Below, piece by piece: positions 1,162 through 36,566 of a stretch of DNA of 64,000 nucleotides; the stretch's first letter is position 1, and each line of letters opens with the position of its first letter. Where the stretch lies: contig CM114271.1 in the NCBI GenBank assembly GCA_050084515.1, forward strand, positions 48,422,001 to 48,486,000. Direction: 5' to 3'. A program made the translations under genes and the position numbers. Below the pieces are notes generated by a model. It was not told the origin of the DNA, made no database searches, and saw nothing but the letters and a program-made list of their open reading frames with translations. The stretch is from Blasia pusilla. Taxonomy: Eukaryota.

Positions 1162-2430
1162 TGTCGTATAGTAAAATCAATCAGTATGTAAATTCCTTCG
1201 TCATTAAGTGTTAGATAGAGTTTCATTAGTTTTAAGTAAATTGGCTAAGAAAAAGGAAATTCTTATGTTTAAACCTCTTTATGGTGCCTCTTTTATGCGG
1301 GCCCAACTTTAGAAAAGGAGGTAATAAATAAAAGATGACTTTATAAAAGTAAAGTAGTTGCTTTAATGAAAAGCAAAAGTAGTCTTGGTTGGTGGCTAGG
1401 TTAGTTGGGGTAATTTGGAAAATATCAAATGGGTAAAAGAGGATATTTTGGAAGAGATAAGAGGAAATCTACTTGTGTCAAAATGTGATTGGCTAAGCCT
1501 TGAGAGGAAGCCATGTGGCACAAGATAAGATAAGCTCTATTTCGTACTCTTGTGGATCCCTTGTGAGTATATAAAGAGGAGGGACCTTCAAGGGTTCATC
1601 ACCTTGTATTCCACATCTTGAGTCTCTCGTGTCTCTCTTGAGTGTATGGCTTTGGGATTGCTTGCTCTTCCAATGAGTGGATCACCCCTCTTGGGAGAGT
1701 AACTTGATCATGGTCTATTCTTCGAGAGGTTTCGAGTGTGGTGTGTGTGTGTGGGGGATGAGAGGTTTGTCACCGAGAGGAGTTTAGTCATACTAAAATA
1801 GCGGATGTTTTGGCTTGTTACTTTCCCAATGAGAGTGGATTACCCCTCTTGGGAGAATAACTCCGCCAAAACCCATTCTTGAGGAGAGTAGAGAATGTCT
1901 GTCAAGCATGGATAGGGGTGGAGCACGAGTTGTGCCCGACTTTCCTTTCCTCAATCCTTACCATGTCAAGGTACTCTTTGTAGATAGGCACTGGTTCACT
2001 CGCTATTTAGTTTATCACTATGGGGGAGGCGTTCATGAACCAGGTCATGCAATCTCCAACTCCGGTGATTCTTCCTATCATCACATATGGAAGGACATGG
2101 GATTGTACTTAATATGTCCTTATATAGCGATCCATGGATGTCAATAGGCGTGGTCAAGTAGGGTTTAACACTAGTTGTGCTATCTTCCTTGTGTACAAGC
2201 GTAAAATAGTTTATAGGGATTTTATAGTTAGGAATTTCGGGGTCCGATATTAAGAAGAAGTGATCGCCTCGGCACTTCCATTTGTGATACCTTTCGTGAG
2301 AGAATGGAGAATGTACATCATAATTTTGTATTGAAAAAGGAGAACTTATTAGAGAGTTCACCTCGCATCGACCGCATCTACCGCAGCTAGAAGCCCCGCC
2401 CTTGCTCGAAGAAAGACTCTCGACACGACA
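1162..2430 (+). mobile_element. 3' LTR of Gypsy family A (1269 bp)
   Basis: TGTCGT...ACGACA termini, directly after the PPT. A second full copy lies at 22260-23532. Confidence 0.93.
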
Positions 2431-2464
2431 CCGCTGGTATACTCTCCATAAACTGACATAATAA

Positions 2465-2957
2465 GCAAACCGTCGGGTTGCTTTTCAACCTGTCATACTA
2501 GTCCATACTAATTACCAAATCGTTCAAACTTAGCCCATAGGCCTGATAGAATAGCGACTTGTCGGAGTCCGACGGATTGTCTTCCAACTCTAAGATCCCT
2601 TTTTTGGCCATGAGCAACCCGTCGAAAGCCGACAGGTTGCTCATCCTGGTGGACAGAACCTCCACCGTTTCGAGTGCGATGGTTGGCTTACAACTTAATA
2701 CAATTTTTCAGAGTTGAGAAGTTCCTAATGTAAGAGCAACCCGTCACTTTCAGATGGGTTGCATCAATCCAGAAACACGGGGAAAAGCAGTGCTACTTGC
2801 AACCACTCAGGTTCCAACGAGTTGCAGTCAATGGAAACTTGTTGGTGAATTTGCAACCAGTCGCTTTCAGATGGATTGCAACACAGCAAACACAAGCTGT
2901 TGGGATCCGACGGGTTTGCATGCATAGATGCAACCCGTCGGAGCCCGACGGGTTGAA
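2465..2957. repeat. Cluster of 27-bp palindromes (consensus GCAACCCGTCGGA-N-TCCGACGGGTTGC)
   Basis: About 8 degenerate copies, e.g. 2614-2640 and 2930-2956. They lie downstream of a GTAAGT donor at 3640 (- strand), so are probably intronic. Confidence 0.85.
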
Positions 2958-2993
2958 TTTCTGTTAAACTAAATTCGTTTAATAAGAGGATTT

Positions 2994-3634
2994 TGTCGTG
3001 CGCATACACATCGCTACACAACATACATCGCTGTCACCGAACACACACACAAACACGCACGATCCCATGCTAACTCATGGCATCCAAACAACAAGACAAG
3101 AAGTACCAAATATCTCCAATAAATTGAGATCCAATCTCTCTCTACACAATCTCACACCATAGCTCTCAAGGTGTGCACTCTCTCTCATGTCAAACCAAAC
3201 CCACTCTCCTAATGAAAGGCTTGGGTTACACTCACAAGGCAAGGGACCATAGCTCCGCCGCCTCATGCCAAGAGGTTCAACAAAGAGAGAATGAGCTCTC
3301 AAGCTCTCTCTCCTTGGGATATATACCCCTCCCCTCTCCCAAGCTCTCTCCATGGTAACCTATTCTCCCAAGTCACCTCCTTGGCTCTTGACCTGATGTA
3401 CGAGGTCAAGGGCCACTTACTAAAAATATAAAGTCGATCATATACTCAAAATGGTACTTACCTAAAATAGTAAGTTTCTCAATATGGCTCCAAATGAGCC
3501 AAAACGAAGGGAAAACCTGCTCTCTCAGGTTTCCCGGGGCCTCAGCAAGTCATCCTCGACCTCCTAGGCCTATCCTCCACTACTCTTGAAGATGCTCTAC
3601 TAGATCTCATCGATCTATCCTAAAGGACGTGACA
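2994..3634 (-). mobile_element. Solo terminal unit (X+Y, 641 bp) of the DNMT-Gypsy family B
   Basis: TGTCGTG...CGTGACA termini. Matches 15101-15677 and 58889-59528. Flanks attt/actt are at best an imperfect 4-bp TSD. Confidence 0.9.
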
Positions 3635-5708
3635 ACTTACCCGGACTTGACTCGTCGCTTATCGGAGTGGATACTCATTTTTAATTACCCATGATTGCGC
3701 CGTCCTCCACTTCAGCGACCTCTTCACACATTGAAGGTTGAACAGCTCATCTTCGCTCCCTCCAGTGAGGACCAAGAAACAACCCTTGTCACTCACATAC
3801 GCGTCGGCAAAAGAAAACAACAGCACGATCTGGTCATACGAAAGCGGGACATTCCAGTCTAGGACGGTTTCAGACGGATTGTTGTCCCACAAGCAAAACC
3901 CAGAAGGCGAATCCGCAATGAGGAGGTCGACCGCCACCTCCTCAACCACCCCATGCACCGTCCAGGGGGCGTGCCCATTTCGAAGGAGTTTTCGTCCCAA
4001 CACGGTCAGTTTGTCTATGGCAGGTATCGACTCCTGAGAACTGAAACTCTGCAGCTCATCGACAAGATGAGTCAAGTGAACAAGGACATTTTTCTTGGTG
4101 GTTGTCTCCCTATGCCTGCCCAAGGATGATGGAGTGTATTCCACATCCTTATCTCCTTCCTTAGACGAACCAGGCGCCTCCCGCTTCCGCTTCTCCCGAG
4201 TCTGATGTCGGCTTGTGGGAGTCTCTGTTACCTCAGACTCCATAGGAGTTTTCTTCAATGAGGACCTGGTCCGGCCCTCTTGCCCCACTCGCCCGGACAA
4301 TTCCGCCTCTCACCTTGAGGACTCAGCCTCTTTTCTGGAAGACTCCGCCTCGGAATTCCTCGATCCCCTGGCCTTCCTCAAACCCGTTGTAGATTTGTCT
4401 TTGGCGGTGACGACCTTGCCCACCAACTCCGCTGTCTCAAGGGCTTGCTCCTCCGCATCTCCTTCGGAAAAAATTTCAGGTTGCACGAGGTTCGGAATAT
4501 CCTCCCTACCTGCGACCACTGCATCATACACCGTGCGTAGATTATTTTTCTGTAATATCCTCTGGGTCGTTGAAGTCCAACCTGATTGGACAATTGTTAA
4601 CCTCCCAGTTGGACATGCCCTATCCCATCTCTATGTCGTATGTGGAGAATGCCTCTCCATCAGGCGGAGAAGCCCACAATTTGCAGACTGCCGGTAGGTA
4701 CCTGCATTCTTACAATTGATGAGGTACCTATACTCCATCCGCTGGGCAGCTCTTTGTCGAGATGACTAGGCCGCTTGGTCCTGAAGATCCCGCTTCTTCT
4801 TTGCAAAATCCCATTTTTTTGGCGTCTATTTCCTCATCTTGGTCTGCCTGAGGGAGGATGTGATTCTTGAACATCATCCAGAATCCCGGGGATTTTGTGG
4901 GCTTATCTCTGATGTCATCAAGCCATAGTTCAAAATCTTCTTCAGCCTCTAGGCTTGCTTCCTCTGGAACTGGCTCAATCTTCTTCAGCTCTGCTTGAAG
5001 ATCCATGAGCATGGACTTCCCCAGAAGGCTTAACGCGTCCCATAATGACCATTCCCGTAGCCAATGGGAGATTAGTGGATCTGAAACTCCCAGAGGATGG
5101 TGTGCCGCCCGCTTTTGGGCCTTAGTGCCCTTGAGACTGATTTTCATCAATCGGATTTGCCTAAACTCGGAAATTCTAGATAGCGCAAATGTGTGCACGC
5201 GGTCCAGAGACACTTTCTTGCCGATCCGACCCTGTGGATCTTCGTCTCTCTTCCACTCGCACTTGATTATCGCCTTGAGCTCCTTGTAAAACTCCGGGCT
5301 AAGTTCAGGGTTGAGAACTGCATCTTGCTTGCATTGTACTTTGTAGCTGCAGATAAAGCAGCCTGAATAAACTTTGCACGTTCCGACGCTCATACGTTCT
5401 CCCTTCGCTCCAGTTCCAACGAAGCACTCTTCTTGGCGGCCTGGATCTTGGACCAACATAGGATTGTGACGGCTACATCTTGGGAAATGAAGGTATTTGC
5501 CCAAGTCTTCTTTTTTATTTGAGCTCCCTTTTCCAGCATCTCATTTACCAGACCGTCGCCCAGGAATCCCTTGTACTTTTCCGGGTGCGTCGTAAGCACC
5601 TTCTTCACCCTGTCGCAATCTTGGATCCAATGGTGGGTGATGTTCCCCTCAGATACAAGCCTGCACATCCAAACACAAGATAAGAATACTGTAAGCTATC
5701 GGGTTCCT

Positions 5709-7547
5709 GCAACACGTCGAACTTCGACAGGTCACAATTCTGTCAACCCATGGGGGTTGAAATGGTAGTACAAAGATAAATGTTGCAACCCGTCGGAGTT
5801 TGACGGGTCGGAACACGTATCTTTGTGTTACATTTATTGCAATACTGTTGAAATTTTTAGAGAGAATTGCAACCCATCAGAGTCCGACGGGTTGCACTCT
5901 CTTTTCGTGACTTTCTGGTCCAACCGATTTAGTCATTGGTTACAACTCATCGGACTCCAACGGGTTGTAGAATGACTTCAATTTGGAGATACATTTTTGA
6001 ATAAAAATTGCACAGATCAACCCGTCAGAGCCCGACGGGTTGCGCAATGTCGTGCGCCTACTCTCCTTGAACGTTAATCTTGTTTGTTGCGGAAGCGTGC
6101 GTTCAGTAGGTCACGCTCTCAACGCTGATCTGCATCCAAACACGCACTTCGGTTAGTCAGGTCTTGGATCAATCAGCGGGATTACTTTCCGAGTTCTCGT
6201 CTCGGACTCTCTCTTCAAGCTCAACCTTCCTAGTTTCGCGGTTTCCAACACGGGCAAGTCTCGAAAGACTTGGGACAGACTTTCAGTCGGGATTCAGAAC
6301 TGAAACGGCGTTTCGTAGAGGATAGCGCCTAGCGGTTCCAACTGTCCGATGAACATCTAATGAGTTCCTCACCAAGACTCGCACGAAGTGAATCTCGGGT
6401 GGAATCCAAGTGTGGCGTACAAAGTCCACTCCCTTGGATCAGGTTTGGGTTTCGGGTTTCCGCGCCAAACTCCCGTTTCATCCCGTGCCTCTGAAACGCC
6501 GTTTGGCGCCCAAAGTGGGATTTCGTTTCCCGAGACATCTCAGAGAAGGTACTCCCCTTACTAGTACTTCTGGGGATCTCCGGGGGCCCCCTACATTTAG
6601 AGAAAGACACCCGGGCCCCTCCAATTGGCCCTCAAGCCGATTGCTCTCTGAATCGTTTTCGGCCAATATCTCAGCCTGTACTTATGCGTTTGCTAAGATC
6701 TTTGGTGCGTTGGAAGCGTCTTGAGATCAGCTTTCCAACGTGCCCTTACTTGTCCCGAACGCATCTCGGAGCTCAACGTTATGGTCCTAAACACAGACAA
6801 ATTCTCCCAAACGCTAGTCATGTTCCAAACTGGTTCTCACCTCTTTGGCAACCAACCTCCAAGACTCAACTCATCTCAAGTCTCGGCTCGCCTTTGGTCT
6901 AGGTTTCCTGGTCGCGACCATTAACGCATGAAACGCACAACTCTGTTCCGCGTTTCGTCTCTTAGACTTTTCCAAGAGACTCTTCCAAACGCCTCTCCAA
7001 AGCGCAAACCTCGCGGCGTGAGTTCCTTTGAGTTATGATGTTTCGCTTGGTGCGTATTTGGTGTTGTTTGGTTATGAGGGTCGCGACACGCAATGCCTTG
7101 TAAAGCTGGAATTGGATGCCTAAAAGCAAGCTCTCACACTCCGACCACCTACCCCTAGGGGGGGAAATGCAACCCATCGGAGTCCGACGAGTTGCTCTCG
7201 GCCAAAAGTATCCAAAAATAACCGAATAGTCTAGCAACTCGTCAGACTTCGACAAGTTGCTATTAGGCGTCCGATGATTTGTTACCTCTCGTTGTGCAAC
7301 TTGTCGGAGTTTGGCGGATTGCAGAACAAATAAATTATGCAGTCATTTTTCCATCCGTCGATGTTCGACTGGTTTCAGTATCCTAGATTAATCTGGTGTG
7401 CTTGGCCACCAAGCAACCCGTCGGACTCCAAAGGTTTGCTTGACTATGACATTGACCACAAACAGGATGGTGGCAAGAGACTCAAATCATTCCTGCCCAT
7501 CTTTAAGCTTTCCAATTATTCAACCCGTGTGACTCCAACGGGTTGAG
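5709..7547. repeat. Intronic clusters of the 27-bp palindrome (5709-6044 and 7169-7547), split by a solo LTR
   Basis: e.g. gcaacccatcagagtccgacgggttgc at 5869 and gcaacccatcggagtccgacgagttgc at 7169. Confidence 0.85.
6048..7088 (-). mobile_element. Solo LTR, family C (1041 bp)
   Basis: TGTCG...CGACA termini with perfect 5-bp TSD cgcaa (6043-6047, 7089-7093). Homologous to 35562-36566; orientation taken from the PBS-like site beside that copy. Confidence 0.93.
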
Positions 7548-9134
7548 GCAATCAAACTTAAGGAAGAGGAAACTTACGTATTCATCGCACGTATTGCCAT
7601 TTCTACTATTGCCATATGATGAGGAAATGGATGGTGCACAATTTCCTTCATGCAAACATGCGCCTCCAATGAATTTCGGCGCTCCTTTGCAAACTACGTC
7701 CACACCATGTACCTATGGTTTCCATCCCAAATGAAGAAGTAAAGGTTCCACATCCAGCTAAATTTGGTTCCTTCAATCGCGCTTCTGAACTCTTGATCTC
7801 TCAACCTCCAAAAAGTATCCACCGCCTCCAAGTCCTCTTCCGTCACCAACGCTTTGGTTCCATGTTCATTGCAAGGCTGAATATAGAACGGAGGGAAGCT
7901 GTCAACGTAGGATGTAGTAGCTGCCGACTGCTTGAGCTTTGCAATGTCCTCCTCCGACTGAATTTCATGAACGTACTCCATTGTCCGCAATCGACAGAGT
8001 GGAATTCTCGAGGGCATTTTGGCCCTCCATAAGTGCCATCTGCTCAACAACTTGCCACAATGGGGACCAAGTCAATAAAATACAATGTTATGCCAATGAA
8101 TTGCATAATGAGCCTTCACATAACTCAATTTTTTCTTACCCGCTCAAAGATTGGGTCGGTGTCCAGGCCCGCTAGCTGCTCTAGGACAACAACTGGCAAG
8201 TCCACGGGAAACTCATCGATCCGATAAAGGTCGATTTCTTCCACAAGGCTCAAAGACAACGAAGACTCTTCTCTTGCTTCTTCAGAGATGTCCACCATCT
8301 CCACACTTGTTGTCCTCGTGACCTCATTGTCTGTCACTTGAACTTCGGCCGTTTCCTCAGCCAATTTTAGATTCATGGTGTCCCCTGACCTCATCGGAGA
8401 CATTTCTTGCATCTCAACACTCTCTATTGGATGGGCAGGGCTTTCTTCAATGACAATTTCTTTTTCCCTTCGAGCTTTCACCAATTTTGCTCTCCTCACA
8501 GAGGCGTCATGAAGCTTCTTCTCGCGTTTCTTGTCCGTGACTCTTTTCTTTAAGGCCTTCGATGCCTCAACCTCGGCATTTTGCTTAGCAAGCTCCTCCA
8601 GAACATATTTTGCTAGAACCTCCTGCTTGTGCATATCTGCTTCCCTTTCCCGCTCCTCTATTTCTTGTTGCCTTATCTCATTTTCCAAACGAGGACTTGG
8701 AGATGGTGACGTTGGAGTCCTGATGGACTTGGGAGTGATGCTCCCTACCTTGGTTGCTTGTGTATTTCTCGTCATGGTGCACGTTGGGTCAGTTCTTCCT
8801 CCTCGACAGTCTAATCTTCTCCTCTGCATGATAGATCCCTCAAAGCATTTCGTGATGAAGCGCCGTGACCCTCCAGCGGATGGGCTTGCCAAAATCGAAC
8901 CCTCAAAGCGTCGGGTGCTGGATCGTCAAAACCTTCCAGCAAAGTGGTGATGTAACTGAGTTTGGCAGCGGAAAGGTAACGTCATCTCCTGCGAGGAAGA
9001 GCACATGAAATTGCAAAATGAAAAACGGAAAGGATCGAAACCTCAGCCTTTTATACTTTTCGAGTCGTTGAGCTGACCGTTGGGTCGTTGGGTCGTATCA
9101 ATGGTGACGTGTTGGCCGTTATGGAACTTTGCAC

Positions 9135-9510
9135 GTGGGAATCCGGGCACCAACGGGTTGCACGCTTCCCTCGTCTTGCGGATGTAGGGCGAGTTGCCAA
9201 GGCAACCTGTCCGAGACCGACGGGTTGCACGCATCCCTCGTCCTCGGGTAACAAGGCGAGGTACCCAGGCAACCCGTCGGAGACCAGCGGGTTGCACGCT
9301 TCCCTCTTCTTGGGATAACAAGCCAAGGTACTCGCACAACCCGTTGGAGACCGATGGATTGCACACTTCCCTCATCTTGGGGTAACAAGGTGAGGTACTC
9401 GGGCAACCCCTCGGGGACCGACGGGTTGTAATTGCACCCTTTCCTTGTCCTTGGGTAACAATGCAACAAAGCATAGTCCCGAGGCAAGCCATTGCCCTCC
9501 GACGGGTTAC
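9135..9510. repeat. 67-bp tandem repeat (about 5 units), each containing one 27-bp palindrome
   Basis: Palindrome starts at 9202, 9269, 9336 and 9403 (67-bp period). Lies between the two divergent genes. Confidence 0.9.
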
Positions 9511-9976
9511 AAGGTCTACCTTGGGGTGGACACTTCCCACCATACGGCAAAAGTGCACGCACGGTTTGTAGAGTTCATTCGAGAAGAGAAATCGACGCGA
9601 GATCCAAAAGGGAAAGCCAGCTTAGGTGCCTTTCAAACCCGTTGCAATCCCCAACGGGTTGCCGTAGCAAATCCATGCGATGTCTCGTGTCTCGATGTTA
9701 GCAAATCCCAACTCCAATCACACAGGTCAAATGGGCAGGGGGTACCAACCCAATAGACTCCGATGGGTTGCAAAGTTGCACTCGAACTCTTACAGAAGCT
9801 GGTACTACGTGGCTTTGCAACCCACGTGTTTGAGTCCCAAATTTTGCAACCCCTTGGACTTTGACTCGTTGCAACAGGATTGAATCCATTCCGTCAGACA
9901 ATCTCACCTACCAAACAACATCTTGTCAGTCGAATTCTGTTAGGAGAATAACAATCACTATTCACTATAAATTAAA

Positions 9977-10026
9977 CATTCTCATTCTCATTCCCATTCT
10001 CATTCTTATTCTTATTCTCATTCTCC
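9977..10026. repeat. (ATTCTC)n microsatellite
   Basis: cattctcattctcattcccattctcattcttattcttattctcattctc. Confidence 0.9.
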
Positions 10027-10257
10027 ACTCAGTGGAATCATCTGGGAATGGATGATTATGTGAAACTCACTTGTGGCAGTCATCTAGCAGCCCTTTCTCA
10101 ATCAGAAATAGTTCGACCGTAAGCTCGTGAATCTTTCATACTAGTGGATGAAATTTTTCTCTTAGTGCAATTTCTTCTCCAAATTGGAACAATCTTTGGT
10201 TCCAAGGATGTTAGGGTGGACGATACAGAGGACGTTGTAGGTGAGACAGTCTAGCTA

Positions 10258-13200
10258 GTGAAAGAAAACCGTAAAGTATGGAATATCCTACCCCTAAAAA
10301 ATGGTCAATACAGAGTTTATGGCTTGCCTCTGAATTCCTCTGTTTCCCAAGTAGACAGTCTGGAATTTCCTAGTGCACCAAGCTCTACGTTTGCCACTAC
10401 AAGCTTAGTATATCCGGAATCGACTCCAACTTCACACATTTGTAACAATGTTGTACTTCTTGAAGACATTCCAGATGTCGTCAACCTCAGTGGAATTGTC
10501 GGACACCAACTGGGTCCTCTGTCTGCTTACTCGTTCCACTTGCGAGTATCAGGCAATAGTTTGCTGTTATCTTTGCCCTTTAAAATGTTCAAGCATATTC
10601 TTGTCAACGAGCTGCCGCCCACGTACGATGGTAATTGCATTTTTGAGTTGCCTCCGCTTGCTGGTCTTGCTCAAAAGAAAGATAGAGGACGCTTGAAGGG
10701 TATGGACAGAAAGTCTGATTGTCATGGATGGTGCAGGTTTCGACGGACTAGTGCTTCAATTCCAGATGGTCCTTGGATTTTTTCTCGCCGCCAATGGGTT
10801 GGAGCCTTGGAGTGTAGAAGTCTAGGTTGCACGTATCTAGAGCGCAATGGGCGAGTCAATACGTCACAATTCTCCCCTAAGAATGCAGAAACTCCATATG
10901 AGGTCGGTGCGACCATACCGCTGGGAGGCCATTGATGTCCTCATTGTCAAGCATTCCCTTTCTGCGTTGGAGCGTGTCCCGCATACATATTTTTCATTGT
11001 GCACGACTTCAATTCTACGTCCGAGTACACAAGGCTGGCAGTTCATGTTGGCTCCCACATTCATCTTGTTACCGGTGCAATTCAGAGACACATCAAGAAG
11101 GATGTGGCAAAGAAAGTGGCCGAGGTATGTAGAAACTCTCTGGGATCAAAGCCCGGAGTGATCAAGTTAACAACAACATCACAAATTTGTGAACAATTGC
11201 TTGGAATCCCTGGGCTGGGCAAGATCACGGCTGGTGAGGAGAAACAACTCTAGGAAAATCTCGCATTTCTTGCTGATCCTGAATGCTTCGGGAATTTTCT
11301 GCGTCAAATGCAAGTACTGGATGGAAAGACGGCCGAAATGGATGCCATTTCCAGAATCAAGGCCAACTCCAGATTTCCATTTATTCAAAGATGGCAGTTC
11401 ATGGGCCAAGGAGGCAAAGGATCTAGGGCTTATATCTTCATAGTATCAACGACAGGGCCGTCCAGTGGCCTCAATCTTATAGATCAAATGAGTGAAGGGG
11501 ACGATCTTTACGGCAGTTGGGTAAGCTTTGATATTTGCTACAGAGTGCTGAATGGATGGTTGACCATGGGTGCTCACGCTTATGACCATGTGGAGAAGGG
11601 ACTCAAAATTGTATTTTCTGTGAGGTAAATGCAGAAGACGTTGGCAGTTTGAAGATGTGTTGGTTACTCTTATTGGAGGTGGTGAAGGAAAACAAAAGGC
11701 CACCTCCAGAGTTTTATGGATTCATGGCAGACAATGCACAACTTGAGTGGATAGGTTCAACCAGAGAGGGAAAGGTCGAATTCTTTCCATTGGAAACAAT
11801 CTGTGACTTGGTACACCAAATCTTGCATTAAGGAGAATAAGAGGACAGAGCATGTCACTCTACTCCAACGCTGCAAGGACAGCAAAGCCTTGAAACAAGC
11901 CATGGAGTGCCAAGAAGAACTACACGGGTGGTGGAGGAAGCATGCGATTGGGGGGAAGTACAAAGAGTTGTGCTCTTGGCTCAGTTGGTGGACTATACAA
12001 ATAAGATAATGGGGAAACTTCATGCGGCTGATGAGTTCAGTATTTCGTCCTATCAAGCTCATGCTGAGAATTTTTTGAAAAGTTGTAGCTCAAGTTGAGA
12101 AGCGCAGGCACTATAGGGATTTCAAACCGAAGAAACCAAGCAACCCGTCGGATGCGACGGGTTGTCTGAGTGTGCAACCAGTCGGAAATCGACGAGTTGC
12201 ATCAAGAATATTTGTGTTACCCGTCGGAGCGCGACATCATGCACGAGGAATGTTTGTGCAACCCGTCGGAACCCGACTGGTTGCATGAGTGTGCAACATG
12301 TCGAATCTCGACGGGTTGCAAGTTGCATGTATAAAAGGCCTGCAAATAGTTTGACCCGGATGGGTTGCAAGCCGCAAGGCTGCGAGTTAACTCGGTCTGC
12401 AACCCGTCAGATTTCAACAACTTACGTTTGTCTACAACATGTTGGATTTCGACTAGTTGTGTCTGTATGCGACTCCTCGCATTCAGACAGGTTACGGCTG
12501 TCTCCAAGTCGTATCCAAACACCTTGCATCAGTTCACGTTAACTGGAATCCCTCGAATTTCAATAGTTGCAAAGCTTTGTGTGTGGATACTTCTTGCAAG
12601 CCAACAAAATCTGACAGGTTGCACAAGGATTCCCGAGACCGGACCGGCCTGCTTCTCACAACCCGTCTAATTTCGACGGGTTGCAGTAGCAGGTTCCTGG
12701 GTACTAGGTTGCAGTAAGAGGTTACAGGGATATTCTAGGGATGTCTCCGACTTGCAACCCGTTTCAAGTTGGAGGTTGGAAAATCCATGTGCAACCCGTT
12801 GGATTCCGATGACTTGCACTTGGATCTTGCAACCCTGAGTGGCCAAAGTTACTTGCAACTCATTTGAATCCGACAGGTTGCAGTAGGTGGTTCCTGGGTG
12901 TTGCAACACGTCGAAAATTGACGGGTCGCAAAGTCATTCATGGGATGCCTCCGACTTGCAACCCGTGTGGTTCCGACAGGTAGCTTTTTTCTTTGCTCAT
13001 AGAGCTATTCTCGTTCCCTTCTCACATTGCCGTCGTTGCAGGGATTGAGCATTCATGAAAATGCCCTCTCCCCCAACACAAGTGGAGAAGAAAGTGTTCA
13101 TTCCTTCCGGAGGTCGTCACAAGCATGCCAAAGAATTTCACTTGTGGAGGCATGCCAACAAGACCAGGAAAGAGCAATGCTACAATCTCTAGCATCCCAT

Positions 13201-14543
13201 ATCTTCCTCACAAAAGGCATAACAAAAGGAAGGGGGCCTTCGATTTACGAGCTCTATGTCAAGGCGGCTGTGAGATCTGGTGATGAAAAACTCTATGTGG
13301 AAGCTTTCAATCGGTGAGTACCAGGTACTCCCCTTGAGCAAGATGTCCACATTGGTGGACACATTGGTGGGCCTTTTCAAGACGTCCCATACAGATGGTG
13401 GTAGAGCACTCCAAGAGAGACTCGTGGAGACCAGATAAGTATCTTGACTTCAGACAAGTGAAGAGGAAGCATTGAGGAACGAACCCGGTGATGGATTTGG
13501 ATGAAGAAGTTATGCCGCCCAGGTATTTGGAGACCCCGGATTGCTCACAAATCTGTCATGCAGTAGTTTCTCCAAAATCAGTGAATGTTTTATTTCAAAA
13601 GCCCTCCGTTGCTGGAAGTCTGCAACATCCGATCATTGGGGTGGTTCAACAATATGGGATTCCAGTCATTGAGGTGGATTGCAACCTCAAAAGGTGGCAT
13701 ATATCTTAGAGCAACCCTGGACGTAGACCCACTTGGAGGGCAGGATCTGATGGCATTAGGAGAGCATGGGGCACTTTCCTAAATAAGAATTATCCAAGGA
13801 CTGGACGACCACTGCTTGGATTTTGGAGGCTCAAAATCTTTGATCGTTTCATGAGGACCGGGGATCAATTGAAGTACTTCTTCTACACAAATGAATCCTG
13901 CGCTTTCCGAAAGTCTTATCCAGCTGCCATTGGAGCTCCAGGGAATACCCTGACGATTTGGCCCATTGCCGCAAGTACGAATTACACTTAGGACAAAGTG
14001 GACAATCTTACAAGTGTCGGTTTTAGACTTGTAGACGGAGGAAGTTCATAGCATGTTTGCATTATAGAGACCTTCGCATTTCGGATTCAACCCAAGATTG
14101 ATGTCAACATGTACTCAGAGAAGGTGGATGATCTCAATCCACTATTTTTGTTTGAGTCTAGAAATGGGGTGAAGAGAAACAGAATATGTAGGCCAACGGT
14201 GGAGAGAGCAAAGCGAATTGCATCAGCTTGAGAGGCAAACATGGAGATCATCGCCAAAAAATATGTCTAGAGTGGAAATTGAATAGGAAGGATGTATTGG
14301 GTCAGGAACAACATTGTAAATTCAAGTGTGACAGGGGTGTATGTGGTGCACATCTGTTGCTTTCCCACATGTTCCTATGATGACTTTGTCCAAAGAGAGA
14401 CAAGTGGGAAAAGGTATTTCCCTTGTAAGCACATGAACTATGTGTTGCTTGTAGTTTTAAGAGAGTCGGAGGTAGGAGTAGGAATCCACCAACCAATTTT
14501 GTCCCTCAAAGAAGTGCGAAGTATTTTAAACAAACCACTTTGA
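10258..14543 (+). pseudogene. Mutator-like DDE transposase with Cys/His-rich (GCM-like) N-terminal region and C-terminal SWIM zinc finger
   Basis: Candidate catalytic residues: VSFD (about 11530), FMADNA (about 11730), FHW (about 11790) and NTSGEESVH (about 13090, after an intron at about 12030-13040). SWIM-like CCFPTCSYDDF...FPCKHMNYVL (14350-14450). Multiple stops. Confidence 0.7.
12139..12985. repeat. Dense intronic array of the 27-bp palindrome (about 17 copies, irregular spacing)
   Basis: Copies at 12139, 12174, 12257, 12293, 12399 and onward, within the putative transposase intron. Confidence 0.88.
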
Positions 14544-15991
14544 CGATGCAAAATGAGGTCTTAGATTTTACTTTCATTTGCCAAAACCTTCACTTTGAGC
14601 TTGAACTCTTTTCAACCTAGGACAAATGATAGATTTTTTTCAGACCTTGGATGGAAAAAGTGTTTTGTTCCACATTTATTATTCCAATGATTTTTCAGTT
14701 TTTAAAATTTTGTGCAAATTGCAACCCGTCGGATTTTGACGGGTTTCCAAAATGTGGAAGAGGAAAAAAAATTGTGTGGGAGTGCCTAAGCACTGAGAAC
14801 AAAAGTGCAAAAATAATCACACAAAAAGTTTCCTCTCTTCAACCCAACGGAAACTCTCTTCAAAAAAAAGTTTCTCTTTGGGTTGAAGGTAGTTTCCTCT
14901 CTCCTCTCTTCCTCTCTTCCTCTCCTCTTACCGGTCCTCAGTTCTTCTTACAAAGCTTCTTGCCGAAGCTAGAATCACTATCGCACTTGGGCCTAGCGAT
15001 CTGCTTACTTTGTTGGGTCATCAGCTTCATCAAGTCCATCATATGGACATAAAGTGTCGAGTCACTTCAGTTTGGAGCCAAAGGCCCTGTAGAAGGATTT
15101 TGTCGTACGCATACACATCGCTACACAACATACATTGTTCTCACCGAACACACACACAAACATGCACGATCCTAAAGTAAGATCCAATCTCTCTCTACAC
15201 CATCTCACACCATAGCTCTCAAAGGTGTGCACTCTCTCTCTTTCATGTCAAACCAAACCCACTCTCCTAATGAGAGGCTTGGGTTACACTCACAAGGCAA
15301 GGGACCATAACTCCAACGCCTCATGCCAAGAGGTTCAACAAAGACAGAATGAGCTCTCAAGCTCTCTCTCTTTGAGGAATACCCCTCCCCTCTCCCAAGC
15401 TCTCTCCATGGTAACCTATTCTCCCAAGTCACCTCCTTGACTCTTGACCTGATGTAGGAGGTCAAGGGCCACTTACCAAAAATAGAAAGTCGATCATATA
15501 CTCAAAATGGTACTTACCTAAAATAGGAAGTTCCTCAATATGGCTCCAAATGAGCCGAAATGAAGGGGAAACCTACCCGTGGCCTCAGCAGGTCATCCTT
15601 AACCTATTGAGCCTGTCCTCCACTACTCACGAAGGCGCTCTACTAGATCTCACCGATTTATCATAAAAGACGTGACAATTGTCGTGCGCATACATATCAC
15701 TACACAACATACATCGCTGTCACCGAACACACACACAAACACACACGATCCCATGCTAACTCAAGGCATCCAAACAACGAGACAAGAAGTACTAAAATAT
15801 CTCCAATCGCCCCCCTACCTGGTGGTTAGGTCCCTCTAACTCCAGATAGTCATCTATCCCTACCTACCATGACATACATCTCTAGGACGCTAAGAGGAGA
15901 AAGGCCGGGTGCTCATGTGGCCCCATCATTAGTCGCCTTCCTGTCATCCATGTCACAAAAAAAGTCAGAATTGAAACCTACCTAGTATCTC

Positions 15992-16145
15992 CTCTATGTA
16001 CATCTGGGACACATCCATTGTCCCCGAGGAACCCTAGTAAGAGGTGGCGTCAGACATGCCATATGCCAACCTCTCGAACATCAATCATAGACTAGCATCG
16101 TGGCCGCACCACAGGCAGAACCACACAACATACAACGCAAGCGTG
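15992..16145 (-). pseudogene. PHD finger at the integrase C-terminus
   Basis: RCMLCGSACGAATMLVYD*CSRGWHMACLTPPLTRVPRGQWMCPRC fits the C4HC3 pattern, with one Cys mutated and a stop. Confidence 0.9.
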
Positions 16146-19060
16146 CAGGAACTACTACTAAGCTTGGATCTACTCTACCATCAATATTAGGAAGGTGACA
16201 TGGCGCACAATTACGCACAAGGTCCTTCCATACCATACCACCGCGTCCCTCCACCAAGAGAACAACAGATGGCAAACCGTCACGCACTCTCAGGATAGTG
16301 CGCCCTACAGTCACATCCAATATTTTCGGTGTCGTCTGCTGCAAGTAGATATAATATCCTTGATGAAACCTCTGGATAGTTGGTCGATAACCACCACCCT
16401 GAATAGTCGCATACCTCAACGTATTTTGATGTTGTGCAATCGCCAAGTTCTCAAACGCCATGGGCATCACTCTCTGAAACAACTTAGCCCTCTGAGAACA
16501 TGCTCGCATCCATATATCTAGGTCATCAAGATCCAGCACCTCACCAGCATCTCGACAAATGGCCACAGGTAAATCTGGCTCTCGGCCATAAAGTAGCAAG
16601 TACGGTGAAAAAGATTCTAAGGATGCCTGCCTGCTGAATCTGTATCCCTTTGCCAACCAGGGCAACTAGAGGTCTCAATCTCCTAGGTGACCTCTCTGCA
16701 AGCCATACTTACGTAAACCCCTCTTCACCGTCTGCACAACTCTCTCCGCTAATCCATCCGTCTCGGGATGATCTTGCGAAGTCGTGTGGTCGTCGATCAG
16801 CGCCTGATCACCCAAGGCTTGGAACTCACCATGAAACTCGGTACCCTCGTCTGTCAACACCTAAGTCGGTGCGCAATAATGACTCACCACTCTGTCAAGG
16901 AAGGCATAAGCTACTCCCTCAATCGCTTTGTCAAGCAATGTAACCAACTCGATCCACTTCCAGAAGTGCTCGACCATCACCAACACATAACGACTATGAC
17001 GCTCCGTCAAAGGCAAAGGTCCTACAAAATCCAAACTCCATCTATACCCTAAGCCCATGATCGGTAATGGATGCAATTGTGGAGTCAGAGCATTGAACGA
17101 TGCTCGAACCCGATCACACACCACGCACCTGGCAACAAACTGTTGAACGTCAGTCTGCATACCTCGCCACAATACTGAATCTGGAGCAAGTTGTACGTCC
17201 GCTTTATCCCAAAGTGACCCAACTCCTCGTGGGAATGTTGCAGTAGTCATGCTCTCTGCAAAGGATGCGGCACTATACATACTCTACCATCCTCCCAAAC
17301 CCTCAAAACATGTGTCTCCTCCCAACGGAACCGTCTGGCCCGCTATAGGATCCGATCCTGCTCTCTAGCACCCACGGTGCTCGCAACGCTGCCAATACAA
17401 AGGTACTCCAAGACTACTCCATCATCATGAATATCTCGGCCACTTGTGGTCTCCTCACTCACCTCAGGATCCAAGGACTCTCCACTAGACCTCGCCATCA
17501 AAGTCTCCACACTGTGGCTCTCCATAGCCAACATGCATATATAGGCTGACGCGTGCCATCCTGGCACTAACTCCTCATCACTTTCTCCATGCCATCGAGC
17601 TCCAGTCACATCTCTCTAACTCAAGCATGGGTTACGACTTAACCCATCTGCATCTTGGTTGAGCGTCCCAGGTCTATGTACCACCTGAAAATCATACTCC
17701 TGCTACAACAGAGCCCATCTCTCTCGAAGTCTCTCTCTCCCTCGCAAGCTTCCCTGTAAGCTTGTCAGACTCCATCAACCACTTCAATGGTTGATGATCA
17801 GTGATGATGGTAAAGGGGTTGCCGAATAAGTAACACCTGAAATGCGCGACAGCCCACACTGCAGCCAAGCACTCACCCTCATACGAGCTGAACTTTGCCT
17901 CTGTAGCGTTGTTCGAGCGGGTAGCATAAGCCACCACGAACTCTCTACCCTAATCATCATGTTGGGTGAGCACTGCTCCAAGCCCCAACATGCTCCAATC
18001 TGTGTGCAACGGGAAAGGACGCCCCCTGATCCGTCTCCTCAAGATGGGCGCGGACGTCAACATGTCCTTGAGCAACTGAAATCCTCGCTCCTGCTCATCC
18101 TCCTAGTGCCACTCGTGATCCACCTTGGTCAGCAAGGTTAGCGGCTTTGCAATCGAACTGAATCCCTTGACGTATCGCCGATAGAAGTTCGCCAATCCAT
18201 GAATGCATGAACACGGCTCACATCCGTAGGAGGTGGAATGCATGAGATAGCCTCTACCTTCGTCTACTGAACACCAAGGCCCCCTAGGTATATCGTATGA
18301 CCCAAGTACTCAATCTAGTCGTAGAAGAACTTGCACTTGCCTGGATGTAGCTTCAGCCCATTCAATTACAATCGTCGAAACATCTCCTCTAGATGTCGCT
18401 CATGCTCGTCAACCGTGGCGCTAAAGACTACAATGTCATCAATATAACACCTAGCAAAATCAAGACCAGCCAATATCCTATCCATGACCCTCTAAAACTC
18501 AGTCGGAGCGTTCTTTAACCCAAATGGTAAGAACCGCCACTAGTACAAACAATCCTTCCCGTGAGGATCGATGCTCCAAAATGCCGTCTTTTTCCTGTCC
18601 TCCAATCTAATAGGCCGGTGATGGTATCTGGCTCGCAAATCCAATGAACTAAAGATCTTTGCGTGACCAATCGCATCAAAGATCTCCTCAGGGGTGGGCA
18701 TGGCATACCTATTGGACTTCGTCTGCCGATTGATAAGTCGGTAATCCCCACACATCCGCCTATCTATACAGTTTCCATGCACATCCTTCGTGGCAAGCAT
18801 GACAATGGCAGATGCATACTCCCCATGCGACATCTGCACTAGTCTTGCTCCGACCAAGTCCTAGCTCCTACTCTGAATCAGAGCCCTCTCCATATCACTA
18901 TACCTCTAGGGTCGTCGGAAGATCGGTGTATCACTCGACAACTCAATGCGGATCCTCGGTCCCTTCAACGTACCCAAATCCTTCATGTTGAACGCAAAGC
19001 AGCTCCTATATCTCTTGAGGAATTGATGTATCCGGCGCCGCTCTCCTCCTATCAACTTAG
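16146..19060 (-). pseudogene. RT - RNase H - integrase (Gypsy order), disrupted
   Basis: RRMCGDYR...KIFSSLDLR...YIDD; VAYATRSNN...YEGECLAAVWAV...TDHQPL; HGHFG/CxxC zinc-binding region; WSLDFVGPLP; LTDEGTEF; HPETDGLAER. Confidence 0.95.
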
Positions 19061-19399
19061 GGCCCATATTTGGCTCCCAAGTCTCCATCGTGACTACAGT
19101 AGGACTCTCCGGCGCGGGTATCGGTGGTTGCTATGGTGCAACCCCGTCTCGAACAACAGCACTCGGCCGCTCTCTTGTAGCCAACTGCAAACTCTGATCT
19201 CCTCCACATGCAGTGCCCAAAACCATGCTCGATATTGTGGCTTTCATCTCCTAGCGTACCTGCAAAACATCCCAAGAAGTCCAAGGGTGTCTCTCCCAAT
19301 CTCCCCTGGTGTGTAGGTCTCCTCGATTCTCGCCCCTAGCCACTACCTCCACCGTCTTGATAGGCATGGGGCTCACCAACGCAATCGTTGTGATCTGTC

Positions 19400-20350
19400 G
19401 CGATCTCATACGACGTTGCTCAGCCACTCCCAAGTTGAGGATCCATGTCAAGCAATTTAGGTCCATCGCTTGACCCAAGACATGGCGTCGTGATCCCTGT
19501 GACACTAACGGTACTGCCGTCACTCCAGTGGGAAATCCCATCGCTCGCTCTCTCGGCGTTGGGCTCCACCAACCGCTGAACCTGGTCATCCCAAACCAAG
19601 CCAAGACCGGCCTCCTTGTATGCATAGGAAGCAGGAAAACTCACAAACGTGGGAAAGCCTGCCCGCGGCCTGCCTACCCTCTTGACCACAGTCAATAGTG
19701 GTTGATCATTGTGCCTCACTGCCTGTGAGCGACAACCTGGATACAGAATGGAATCCACTAACAAATGGGAGGGGCGCTCCACTCTTGCATACGCCCTCCG
19801 TAACACCGCATGGGGCACCAAGTTGGTCCACCATAGACGCGGGCGATGGGCTCTAGAACCTACACTCGTAGTATCCAAGAACACTATTGGGCCGATCCAG
19901 GCACGGACTTGATGAGCACTCATCACCACCTATGACCTGGAGTCTCCTAAGATCGGCACATTCTCCAAAATGTAGGCTGGAGAACAAGACTGGTGCTCCT
20001 ACAACTGCCGTAAGACCCTCAACATCTCCCAAAACAACCTGGATCGAGTATCAGCCAACCCGATGCCTCGTCTAGCATTCGATTGGCCCTGACATGGCCA
20101 ACCGGAAATGACCAAATCAATGGTCCCTACCCGCTCTAAGTCTCTGGTACCCCTGTACCATGGACGTAGACAATAAGTCGGGAAAACATAGGCATAATTA
20201 TGCCACATGTCGTAGTGAGACGCGCCTCGCAACATCATCACTCTCCACATACATGTACTCTTGCACTCGCACTCCTGCCTACAAAACAGCAGCTAACCCG
20301 ATGCTAATCCCTCCAAAGAGATCTAACATTCAAATATCCTCCTTCGGGGT
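19400..20350 (-). pseudogene. C5 cytosine DNA methyltransferase domain (DNMT3-like), copy 1
   Basis: LDLFGGISIG (motif I), IDLVISGWPCQGQS (IV), YILENV (VI), GSRAHRPRLWWTN (VIII), ERAMGFPTGVT (IX), RRHVLGQAMD (X). Confidence 0.92.
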
Positions 20351-20497
20351 ACACCACACAATGGGTGTGGTATCCAAGGGTGTCATCAAAGCACTCTCTG
20401 CTACCTCGGGTTCCTCAGACCCATCACCCTCCGATGCAAACGCCTCGCTCCACGCGATCTGCATGTGCTCATCTGCCAATCGTCAAAGCTCCTCAAC

Positions 20498-21150
20498 CGC
20501 TCATGCTCCTCAACCGTGGTGCTAAAGACTACGATGTTATCAATATAACACCTAGCAAAATCCAGACCAGCCAAGATCTTATCCATGACCCTCTGAAACT
20601 CAGCCGGGGCATTCTTTAACCAAAATGTTAAGAAACGTCACTAGTACAAACAATCCTTCCCGTGAGGATCGATGCCCCAAAATGCCGTCTTCCGCTTGTC
20701 CTCCAATCTGATGGGCAACTAATGGTATGTGGCTCGCAAATCCAATGAACTGAAAACCTTTGCATGACCAATCACATCAAAGATCTTCTCAAGGGTGGGC
20801 ATCGCATACCTATCGGACTTTGTCTGCCAATTGATAGGTTGGTAATCCCCATACATTTGCCTATCCGTCCAGTTGGCATGCACATCTTTCTTGGCGGGCA
20901 TGACAGTGGCAGGTGCATACTCCCCATGCGACATCTCCACTAGTCCTGCTCCAACCAAGTCCTGGCTCCTACTCCAAATCAGATCCCTCTCCATATCACT
21001 ATACCTATAGGATCATCGGAAGATTGGCGTATCACTCGACAACTCAATGCGGATCCTCGGTCCCTTTAGCGTACCTAAATCCTCCATGCTAAACGCAAAG
21101 CAACTCCTTTAACTCTTGAGGAACTGATGTATTCGGCGCCACTCTCCTCT
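20498..21150 (-). pseudogene. Duplicated N-terminal half of RT
   Basis: Parallels 18410-19060 (EMSHGEYA...KVFSSLDLR...RCYIDNIVVFS) and ends at the duplication junction, about 20497. Confidence 0.9.
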
Positions 21151-21499
21151 TGTCAACTTAGGGCCCATATCTAGCTCCCAAGTCTCCATCGTGACTACGG
21201 TAGAACTCTCCGGTGCGGATATCGATGGCTGCTATGATGCAACCCTGTCTCGAACAACAACACTCGACTGCTCTCTTGCAGCCAACTGCAAACTCTGATC
21301 TCCTCCACATGCAGTGCCCGGAACCACGCTCGATGTTGTGGCTATCATCTCCTGGTGTACCTGCAAAACATCCCAAGAAGTCCAAGGGTGTCTCTCTCGA
21401 TCTCCTCGGGTCTCGCCCCCAACTAGTGCCTCCACCATCTCGATAGGCATGGGGCTCACCAACGCAACTGTTGTGATCTCTCGCGATCTCATCCAACGG

Positions 21500-35417: not shown

Positions 35418-35561
35418 ACTCGCCTCTTCAAATCTCCTCATTGTTTCTTGCATCCCTCCCCAAGCGTCTAGGTCTCACTGCTACCTTGAGTTCTCCCCAA
35501 GCGTCCAATTGCTCCTACAGCCTCAAGTTCTCACTTACCAAGGATTTTCTCTGATACCGCA

Positions 35562-36566
35562 TGTCGTGCGCCTACTTCTCTTGAATGTCAATCTTTAGTG
35601 TTGTGGAATCGTACGTTCTTTGGGACACGCTCTCATCATCGATTGGCACCCACACACACTCACGTTAGTTTGGTTTGGGTCAATCGGCCTTCCAACCCGC
35701 CGAGTTCTCAACTTGACACTTATCAAACTCAACCTTCCCTAATTCCTAGCTTCCTAACACGGAAAGTCTTCCGAGACTTGGGACAGACTTTCTAGTTATT
35801 CTAGGCACCTAAAACGATGTCCGCGCACCTCGCAATCCCAAGTGTCCAATGGAGCCTTGCATGAGACCCAACAATATGAGTCGCGAGTTGGAATCCAAAC
35901 AAGGACCTCCGAAATCTACTCTATTGGACTTGGTTTGGGTTTCAATTCCCAACGCCAAAACTTCAGTTCCATTTTGTGTCCTTAGGTGGCCCCGCGGTGC
36001 CCAAAAGTGGAGTTTGAGTACCAATCACTCTTGGAGACCTTCCCCTTTACTAGTACTTATGGAGATCTCCGCCCTCCCCCTACCTTTGGGGAAGAGACAC
36101 TGGGGCCTCTCTTTTTGGCCCTCAACCCAACTCCCTGTATGGTCATTTTCGGCCAATATCTTAGCCTTTGCTCGTGCGTTTCTGAGGTCTTTGGTGCGTT
36201 GGAACTAAATTTTCATAAGGTTTCCAATGCCATGTTACTTGTTCCAAATTCATCTTGGGAATAAAATTTATGGTTGAAAATACATTCAAAACCCCAAACG
36301 CTAGTCACATTTCAAATCCGATTCTCACCTCTTAGGCAACCAACCATCCTAGACTCAAATCCTCTCAAGTCTTGGTTCACGTTTGGTCCAGGTTTCCTAG
36401 TCACGACCATAAACACATGAAATGCTCAACCTTGTTTGCGTCTCATCTTGTGTGTCTCTTGCATCTCTTCCAAGAGACGACTCCAACGCGCAAAACCATT
36501 CTAGCTTGAGCCCGCTAGAGTTCATATGTTCCGCTCGCCGCTCGTTTGGTTATGAGGGCCGCAACA
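35562..36566 (-). mobile_element. LTR family C, probable 5' LTR with adjacent tRNA-iMet-like PBS
   Basis: Homologous along its length to 6048-7088. Preceded on + by ctctgataccgca (- strand tgcggtatcagag, versus canonical tggtatcagag). Confidence 0.82.

Follow-up and report, generated by a model that had tools for sequence, protein, structure and literature searches.

A decayed, palindrome-marked unit in the liverwort Blasia pusilla with a putative methyltransferase-derived accessory gene

In a window of 64,000 nucleotides from Blasia pusilla (GenBank assembly GCA_050084515.1, contig CM114271.1, forward-strand positions 48,422,001 to 48,486,000; all coordinates below are positions in this window), two divergent, broken genes are flanked and interspersed by copies of a family-specific palindrome that is almost absent from the rest of the sequence. 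The plus-strand gene is read here as a putative transposase, and the minus-strand gene as a multi-exon accessory gene whose last recognizable segment resembles part of the beta-class N6A/N4C DNA methyltransferases. In the explanation favored here, positions 2434-15093 would represent a single decayed member of a family of large DNA elements of liverwort type, carrying both genes, the accessory protein would be a non-catalytic, methyltransferase-derived module for DNA binding or base recognition, and this module would recognize the palindromes of its own element for self-recognition or anti-silencing, in a manner resembling that of VANC, and not for methylation. Taken as a whole, this explanation appears to us evenly poised between right and wrong, and its parts are graded separately below. 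An initial annotation, made from the sequence alone, had described the locus as a Mutator-like element with a ParB-like and amino-methyltransferase-like accessory gene; the palindrome marking is a feature absent from that description.

Palindromes mark a single unit containing both genes

The palindrome is 25 bp long and consists of the arm CAACCCGTCGGA, one central base and the complementary arm TCCGACGGGTTG. With up to 3 mismatches allowed, the full palindrome yields 32 strand-matches in the window, all of them located in 2615-14746, against an expectation of 0.00 derived from 100 shuffles. The 12-nt arm, searched with up to 2 mismatches, yields 55 half-site matches in the 64 kb, 54 of which fall inside 2466-14851, the sole match outside the unit being at 28180. 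These half-sites occupy both outer flanks, the region between the genes, a 2-kb intron of the accessory gene and the gap within the plus-strand gene, and 53 of the 54 lie outside the segments read as exons (the exception, at 3870, is in a putative coding segment). In the intergenic region, part of the cluster is organized as a 67-bp tandem array (9149-9428) of 4.2 copies, with one palindrome in each unit. The unit and its clusters, none of which is assigned a strand, are as follows.

2434..15093: element at its largest possible extent (about 12.7 kb), delimited by self-comparison, in which an unrelated repeat ends at 2433 and a long terminal repeat (LTR) starts at 15094; the true termini are undefined
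2466..2955: left-flank palindrome cluster, 10 half-site matches
5710..6042 and 7170..7545: palindrome clusters of intron 2 of the accessory gene, 15 half-site matches, split by an unrelated 1-kb repeat (6047-7088)
9149..9858: palindrome cluster of the region between the divergent genes, 11 half-site matches
12141..12983: palindrome cluster between the DDE-like and SWIM-like parts of the plus-strand gene, 15 half-site matches
14722..14851: right-most palindrome half-sites, 2 matches

Because the palindromes flank and lie inside both genes and are nearly absent elsewhere in the window, the two divergent genes belong to a single palindrome-marked unit, which is present in the 64 kb as a single dead copy. 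The exact palindrome had 0 matches in metagenome contigs, and a search of 2400-15100 against Rfam returned 0 families.

Where the arms are intact and one base apart (for example at 5870-5894, 5943-5967, 7170-7194, 7414-7438, and 7521-7545), the center of the palindrome reads GANTC. Several copies lack a GANTC center, and coincidence is possible, since any palindrome centered on GA-N-TC yields this sequence. GANTC is also the site of CcrM-type beta-class enzymes; the agreement is a loose lead only. The stretch separating the palindrome array from the first plus-strand open reading frame (ORF) contains, at 9977-10025, a microsatellite with 8.2 copies of CATTCT.

Structure and decay of the accessory gene

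The accessory gene model was read from the sequence, and its exons and splice sites are putative. All of its features lie on the minus strand.

8140..8829, minus strand: putative exon 1, Glu/Lys-rich, with ATG at 8829 or 8775, within the ORF 8125-8925
8139..8051, minus strand: intron 1, 89 nt, with AG acceptor at 8052-8051
7713..8050, minus strand: exon 2, the ParB/Srx-like candidate, with IPLCRL at 8005-7988 and DGNH at 7726-7715
5661..7712, minus strand: intron 2, 2052 nt, containing the palindrome clusters and the unrelated 1-kb repeat
4731..5660, minus strand: exon 3, a middle region homologous to the N-terminal parts of two Riccia proteins
3641..4309, minus strand: last recognizable coding segment, a basic low-complexity stretch followed by the methyltransferase-like domain at about 3934-3665

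The last residues of exon 1 would be FER, with the GT donor (GTAAGA) beginning at 8139, and exon 2 would end with DGNH and the AG of a split Arg codon (DGNH|R, 7726-7713), followed by a GT donor at 7712-7711 (GTACAT). When exons 2 and 3 are joined in silico, the first base of exon 3 (G, 5660) completes the Arg codon and the resulting frame spans 202 codons with no stop. In the last segment, the methyltransferase-like motifs are found, on the minus strand, as VDLLIA followed by DSPSG (3931-3899, with DSPSG at 3913-3899), VSDKGC (3796-3779) and WVIKNEYPLR (3691-3662), the last conforming to the pattern W.I.N..P.R. The spliced gene divergent from the plus-strand gene that the initial annotation had proposed is hence borne out by exons read from the sequence, and so are the strings that it quoted: DGNH, the Arg codon split at the GT donor 7712, VDLLIADSPSG, VSDKGC, and a Ser codon TCG that is one transition away from CCG.

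The gene model also corrects that annotation, in that the accessory gene is itself decayed. The overlapping ORFs 5390-5695 and 4728-5540 each match the Riccia proteins in turn, from 5695 to 5390 and then from 5540 to 4728, and a one-base frame change must therefore lie near 5390-5400. The last ORF (4309-3659) is closed by an in-frame TAA at 3661-3659, and the alignment with both Riccia proteins runs six codons beyond this stop (ATSQVR, to 3641), after which comes the sequence GTAAGT (3640-3635). The frameshift and an in-frame stop with homology past it identify this copy of the accessory gene as a pseudogene, and its coding sequence may once have extended into a further exon. What follows the gene is another repeat.

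2987..3635, plus strand: LTR-like repeat, starting 5 nt past the last recognizable coding base of the accessory gene

Copies of this repeat occur at 15094-15807, 28413-28931, and 58889-59658, with 82-95% identity among copies, and no flanking target duplication was found around 2987-3635. Since it is a solo LTR-like repeat devoid of such a duplication, DNA downstream of the accessory gene was possibly lost by recombinational deletion. The retrotransposon that the initial annotation had placed at 2430 corresponds to a repeat that does end at 2433, but the LTR-like repeat lies closer to the gene.

A methyltransferase-like domain shared with two Riccia proteins

A phmmer search with the 216-residue C-terminal ORF of the accessory gene against 1.84 billion representative proteins returned two sequences at E ≤ 0.001, both unannotated hypothetical proteins from Riccia: KAL3687003.1 from Riccia sorocarpa (488 aa, E 1.9e-8) and KAL2653794.1 from Riccia fluitans (305 aa, E 3.5e-7). 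Both show about 33% identity to the window ORF over the C-terminal domain, and the middle region aligns as well. Neither gene model includes the Glu/Lys-rich exon or the one with DGNHR, both models beginning downstream of the ParB-like segment, and each protein is alone in its 90%-identity cluster and seen on one contig. Word-indexed protein searches uncovered no extra relatives of the C-terminal ORF among longer proteins, and the family alignment recovered only its own Riccia protein in them; the same alignment gave 51 pattern matches in viral contigs and 155 in metagenome contigs, with 0 confirmed relatives in either set.

The evidence for a methyltransferase ancestry comes mainly from profile-profile comparison (hhalign) of a three-sequence alignment, hereafter A2, composed of the window C-terminal ORF and the two Riccia proteins. 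A2 matches a 12-member beta-class profile, built from YhdJ of E. coli and 11 phage enzymes, with P 1.6e-4 over 83 columns, and a profile of 80 viral beta-class enzymes with probability 69.8 and P 4.1e-5. The match to the beta-class profile persists over 80 columns when the window row is removed and only the Riccia rows are used (probability 81.4, P 1.2e-5), and each sequence taken singly aligns with it from a common profile start position (P 1.5e-4, 8.1e-4, and 2.6e-3). None of 200 column shuffles of A2 reaches the observed score of 35.0 (mean 12.6, standard deviation 2.4, maximum 20.8), and the reversed alignment scores 17.5. Among the control profiles, ParB and IS256 gave P 0.49 and 0.18 with A2. 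MT-A70 was considered as a nearer family and rejected at P 0.41, a value obtained with a narrow set of 19 phage sequences, though that profile matches the beta class at P 1.3e-8. Searched against 177,635 PDB sequences, A2 has as its best match the beta-class adenine methyltransferase DpnA (5hfj, 5hek; E 0.17), in a register that places DPPY on DLPxG and the ensuing hydrophobic "N-G-C" strand on "K-G-C". In a protein-language-model atlas, the named matches of the C-terminal domain are all methyltransferase-type clusters, with N6_N4_Mtase scores of 0.86-0.87 that lie below the 0.9 bar and provide a lead only; the atlas's own low-confidence model, with a predicted local distance difference test (pLDDT) of 0.33, has template modeling (TM) scores of 0.53-0.56 to methyltransferase clusters. 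On these comparisons, the domain is quite likely to be derived from the N-terminal half (motif IV to about motif VIII) of a prokaryotic or phage beta-class N6A/N4C methyltransferase. The beta-class layout put forward in the initial annotation hence finds a counterpart in the register with motifs IV-VI and in the shuffle outcome, but the domain stays under the Pfam threshold.

A degenerate motif IV and a missing SAM-binding half

Motif IV reads DSPSG in the window copy and DLPTH and DLPKG in the Riccia proteins. All three keep the Asp and one Pro but have neither the second Pro nor the aromatic residue, so that the consensus (D/S/N)-P-P-(Y/F/W) is found in 0 of the 3 members. The initial annotation had traced DSPSG to a C>T change in DPPY, but since the Riccia proteins have a degenerate motif IV too, a recent C>T mutation of the Pro codon in this copy is not the explanation. 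The same annotation expected the S-adenosylmethionine (SAM)-binding motif I further downstream, and this expectation is not borne out in the 64 kb. The C-terminal SAM-binding half (motif X and motifs I-III, with FxGxG) is strongly conserved among the 80 viral beta-class enzymes, and no ORF in the 64-kb window matches it, the best hit being an unrelated ORF at E 0.32. Both Riccia models, in turn, stop 12-27 residues beyond the shared domain. With motif IV degenerate and a SAM-binding half present neither in the window nor in either Riccia model, the accessory protein is unlikely to have been catalytic, and it is more likely to have been a DNA-binding helper than a working enzyme.

A possible ParB-like segment upstream of the domain

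The exon 2 segment running from IPLCRL to YIQPC was compared by hhalign, as a single sequence, with a profile of 80 viral ParB_N segments. It aligns to profile positions 33-75, in a strand-helix-strand region, with P 0.009 when taken unspliced and P 0.017 when spliced, and 1 of 150 shuffles reaches its score, a borderline result. On its own, LYFFIWDGNHRLVS aligns to profile positions 77-90 (P 0.09), with G..R on G..R, and the two aligned pieces are collinear, with about 43 extra residues between them. Pfam assigned 0 families to the exon 2 ORF, which stays under the ParB_N threshold, and a hidden Markov model (HMM) of the 80 viral ParB_N segments ranked it sixth at E 18, which is noise, among the 1373 window ORFs (30 codons or longer) that formed the set for all HMM searches. 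No relevant match to the segment emerged from phmmer against the PDB or from tblastn against phages and plasmids, and the atlas search with exon 2 gave no usable match. The ParB/Srx signature reported by the initial annotation is thus present as DGNH|R. The ParB reading of the exon reaches an hhalign P of about 0.01 but is not recovered by Pfam, HMM, PDB, or tblastn searches, and the ParB homology of exon 2 is only suggestive.

ParB_N-methyltransferase fusions were also sought in phage contigs. At the 80 loci analyzed, 4 proteins have an N-terminal extension of more than 150 residues, and 3 of these 4 contain ParB_N at E < 1e-3. One of these fusions exceeds the Pfam cut-off; at locus L019, ParB_N has E 8e-9 and N6_N4_Mtase has E 2e-57. 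Four phage methyltransferase or ParB-like proteins taken as candidate fusions contained no ParB_N domain, and ParB_N (PF02195) had no match in five phage records. Since the fusion architecture is known in phage contigs, the ParB reading of exon 2 is plausible even with the ParB identity itself at the level of a suggestion, and a derivation of the accessory gene from a ParB_N-methyltransferase fusion is weakly possible.

The plus-strand gene

The gene divergent from the accessory gene is represented by two remnants.

10255..12098, plus strand: putative transposase remnant, a series of ORFs with in-frame stops and one frameshift
14283..14543, plus strand: SWIM-like zinc-finger ORF with the pattern CC..C...PCKH (C..C..CxH), recognized by eye; Pfam negative

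The first frame (10255-11628) contains 2 in-frame stops and then shifts to 11586-12098, which contains 2 more. By eye, the gene shows a Cys/His-rich N-terminal part and a D..D..E-like spacing. A second, diverged SWIM-like relic, also with stops, is found at 38908-39207; tblastx between the two segments shows 53% identity over 100 codons (E 5e-33) with the Cys/His pattern kept, and 36-44% identity in the other frames. The higher in-frame identity indicates that the SWIM-like segment was once coding and part of a repeated family. The relic has no palindrome half-sites nearby, and a related element was once present there.

We infer from these patterns that the plus-strand gene is a putative transposase. 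The DDE and SWIM pseudogene that had been annotated on this strand is reflected in the broken ORFs and in the SWIM-like Cys/His motif, but it lacks statistical support. Membership in the Mutator superfamily, which the same annotation had assumed, is not borne out, in that no family match was obtained with Pfam, homologue, PDB, or IS256-profile searches and neither long terminal inverted repeats (TIRs) nor 9-11 bp target-site duplications (TSDs) were found; the label "Mutator-like" is best regarded as a reasonable guess.

Surrounding repeats

The window is repeat-rich eukaryotic DNA, and nested pieces of LTR retrotransposons flank the unit. To its left, a repeat at 1161-2433, whose sharp end bounds the unit on that side, recurs inverted at 22257-23533 with 96% identity, and positions 1-315 recur at 1203-1516 (inverted) and 23177-23491. 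To its right, an LTR retrotransposon is present in two copies, 15094-22260 and 59019-64000, with 86% identity over 3.5 kb (the internal part matches 59019-62537); an integrase ORF with stops on the minus strand (16081-17283) matches rve at E 2.5e-5 and Integrase_H2C2 at E 4.6e-5, both below the Pfam cut-offs. The 1-kb repeat located in intron 2, which is unrelated to the palindromes, has two further copies of about 68% identity, inverted relative to each other, at 35561-36566 and 36744-37454.

Alternative explanations

Several observations weigh against the explanation of the locus as a decayed element with a palindrome-recognizing, methyltransferase-derived module. The first group concerns the identity of the domain. 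Pfam finds 0 families for any window ORF, for the three members of A2, or for either whole Riccia protein; the HMM of 80 viral beta-class enzymes leaves the accessory ORF outside the top 12 of the window ORFs; and hhalign probabilities for the methyltransferase match range from 51 to 81%, and none is above 95%. Of the comparison proposed by the initial annotation, the profile half gave the hhalign match of A2 to beta-class profiles. Both AlphaFold models have pLDDT values below 40 (38.8 from a single sequence and 32.3 from three sequences) and are unusable for fold assignment. The methyltransferase resemblance might be a false positive, in which a strand, an Asp-x-Pro loop, and a hydrophobic strand would fit any Rossmann-like profile. 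The absence of an HMM-level match, hhalign probabilities that stay below 85%, the PDB E-value of 0.17, the atlas scores short of the bar, and the poor confidence of the atlas model are all in line with this possibility. Yet no shuffle out of 200 reproduces the score, three control profiles, including the related MT-A70, remain at P 0.18-0.49, the three sequences, each aligned independently, share a register that spans motif IV and the V/VI strand, and the top PDB match is itself a beta-class enzyme in the same register. We therefore regard a spurious resemblance as unlikely, although it fares better than the alternatives that follow.

The second objection is of a structural nature, since one half of a Rossmann fold would presumably be unstable by itself. 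For this reason, the gene models are possibly truncated and the protein was possibly a full enzyme. Intact members of the family would, on this account, encode a complete, active ParB-methyltransferase depositing N6-methyladenine (6mA) or N4-methylcytosine (4mC), and the copy in the window would have lost its SAM-binding exons and mutated its motif IV. Homology beyond the TAA indeed reaches a consensus donor (GTAAGT), and the Riccia models diverge exactly there, as if more exons followed; the LTR-like repeat at 2987-3635, with no flanking duplication, leaves room for a deletion of DNA at that point; and the fusions with E < 1e-3 in three of the four long-N-terminus phage proteins show that the architecture occurs. 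Beta-class 4mC enzymes are, moreover, in use in liverworts (10.1101/2021.02.12.428880). Opposed to this are a motif IV that in all three members is devoid of its second Pro and its aromatic residue, the lack of any ORF in 64 kb matching the conserved C-terminal half, and the ending of both Riccia models within 12-27 residues of a common point. An active enzyme in intact members is accordingly improbable, and a non-catalytic, methyltransferase-derived module remains the reading preferred here.

The remaining objections concern the element itself. Only one copy has been seen, and the proposal is based on one decayed copy and two unannotated Riccia relatives. No inverted repeat other than the palindrome motif exists between 2401-3000 and 14301-15110, and no target-site duplications were found; both ends of the unit abut other repeats, so that the true ends are possibly missing. 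Neither 10255-11628 nor 11586-12098 nor any smaller ORF matched a Pfam family at E ≤ 1, also when stops were read as X. A word-indexed homologue search with the plus-strand ORF found none among 6831 candidates, comparison of the plus-strand pieces with the PDB returned nothing relevant, and an IS256-family profile matched these pieces at P 0.14-0.47; this profile is narrow (number of effective sequences 2.2) and comprises 68 sequences, namely the seed and those from the 67 of 80 loci that were left once short matches and rows containing stops had been removed. The unit is presumed to be a DNA transposon, an identity that is unproven, and the binding of the palindromes by the accessory protein is something that we purely infer.

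The minus-strand gene could be seen as a decayed host or host-derived gene that happens to lie beside an unrelated transposase relic, with the palindromes representing a local, invading short repeat. The absence of TIRs and TSDs and of a proven transposase, the occurrence of each Riccia relative as the sole member of its cluster on one contig, and the SWIM-like relic at 38908-39207 with no palindromes in its vicinity would all fit such a scenario. It has difficulty, however, with palindromes that are distributed around and inside both genes, with 1 of 55 half-sites elsewhere in 51 kb, that avoid the coding segments, and with inactivating mutations that affect both genes, as expected for an old repeat copy. 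A chance association with a host gene is improbable to the same extent as an active enzyme, and the single palindrome-marked unit continues to be best explained as a decayed element. Slimmer still are the chances of a more ambitious version of that proposal, in which a liverwort DNA-transposon family would have captured a phage-type ParB-methyltransferase fusion whose product, in intact copies, loads on about 27 parS-like palindromes and deposits 6mA or 4mC or, when dead, shields CG-rich sites from the host 5-methylcytosine (5mC) machinery; if true, a land-plant transposon would carry an epigenetic module that came from prokaryotes and is addressed to the element itself.

Comparison with known systems

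No description of such an element was found in a literature search of listings and selected passages, and the supplements of the cited papers may list liverwort transposon families that bear on its novelty. At present, the value of the proposal is that of a testable lead, not a result. The features of the accessory gene can nonetheless be set against those of characterized systems. As in the beta-class N6A/N4C enzymes (N6_N4_Mtase, PF01555), its domain presents a strand leading to Asp-x-Pro, a Trp spacer, a "V-S-D-x-G-C" strand at the position of motifs V/VI, and a W-x-I/K-x-N pattern; unlike them, it has neither (D/S)PP(Y/F) nor the C-terminal SAM-binding half, and it scores below the Pfam threshold. 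The possible ParB-like segment N-terminal to the methyltransferase-like domain recalls the ParB_N-fused phage forms, such as that of locus L019, whereas the phage and bacterial enzymes differ from this gene in that the latter is eukaryotic, bears introns, and resides within a repeat element.

Few amino-methyltransferases have been reported in land plants (PMC4738411), and the one liverwort case known is a host sperm enzyme (10.1101/2021.02.12.428880). The Marchantia proteins MpDN4MT1a/b are described there as sperm beta-class 4mC methyltransferases with an intact TSPPY motif, on which 4mC depends (10.1101/2021.02.12.428880). A prokaryotic beta-class ancestry in liverwort proteins would be common to both systems (10.1101/2021.02.12.428880), but MpDN4MT1a/b are host genes with an intact motif, whereas the accessory gene lies in a putative element and its motif is degenerate. 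Any kinship between them would be remote, in that phmmer at E ≤ 0.001 returned the Riccia proteins only.

Dead methyltransferase domains in transposons have a precedent in the DIRS1 retrotransposon, the methyltransferase domain of which is PCIF1-like and was considered to be without catalytic activity, a role in binding being proposed for it (PMC4738411). Both cases involve a transposon-borne, methyltransferase-derived domain, degenerate here and dead in DIRS1 (PMC4738411), and they differ in that the DIRS1 domain belongs to the PCIF1-like group and is part of a retrotransposon polyprotein, while here it is encoded by a separate gene of a putative DNA element. If the proposal holds, the locus would add to the instances in which mobile DNA of eukaryotes has reused a DNA-modification domain from prokaryotes.

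The overall layout, lastly, is reminiscent of the Arabidopsis VANDAL elements, which are Mutator-like. Their anti-silencing protein VANC, whose gene neighbors that of the transposase, is targeted to non-coding parts of the elements of its family, where it binds short, family-specific motifs, many of them in tandem repeats (PMC5735166). In the Blasia unit, too, an accessory gene stands beside a putative transposase, and a family-specific motif is spread through the non-coding regions, in part as a 67-bp tandem array. The motif is a 25-bp palindrome, unlike the VANC targets, and the likeness is one of layout. If the accessory protein did recognize these palindromes, it would represent a second independent route, after VANC, by which a plant transposon can address itself.

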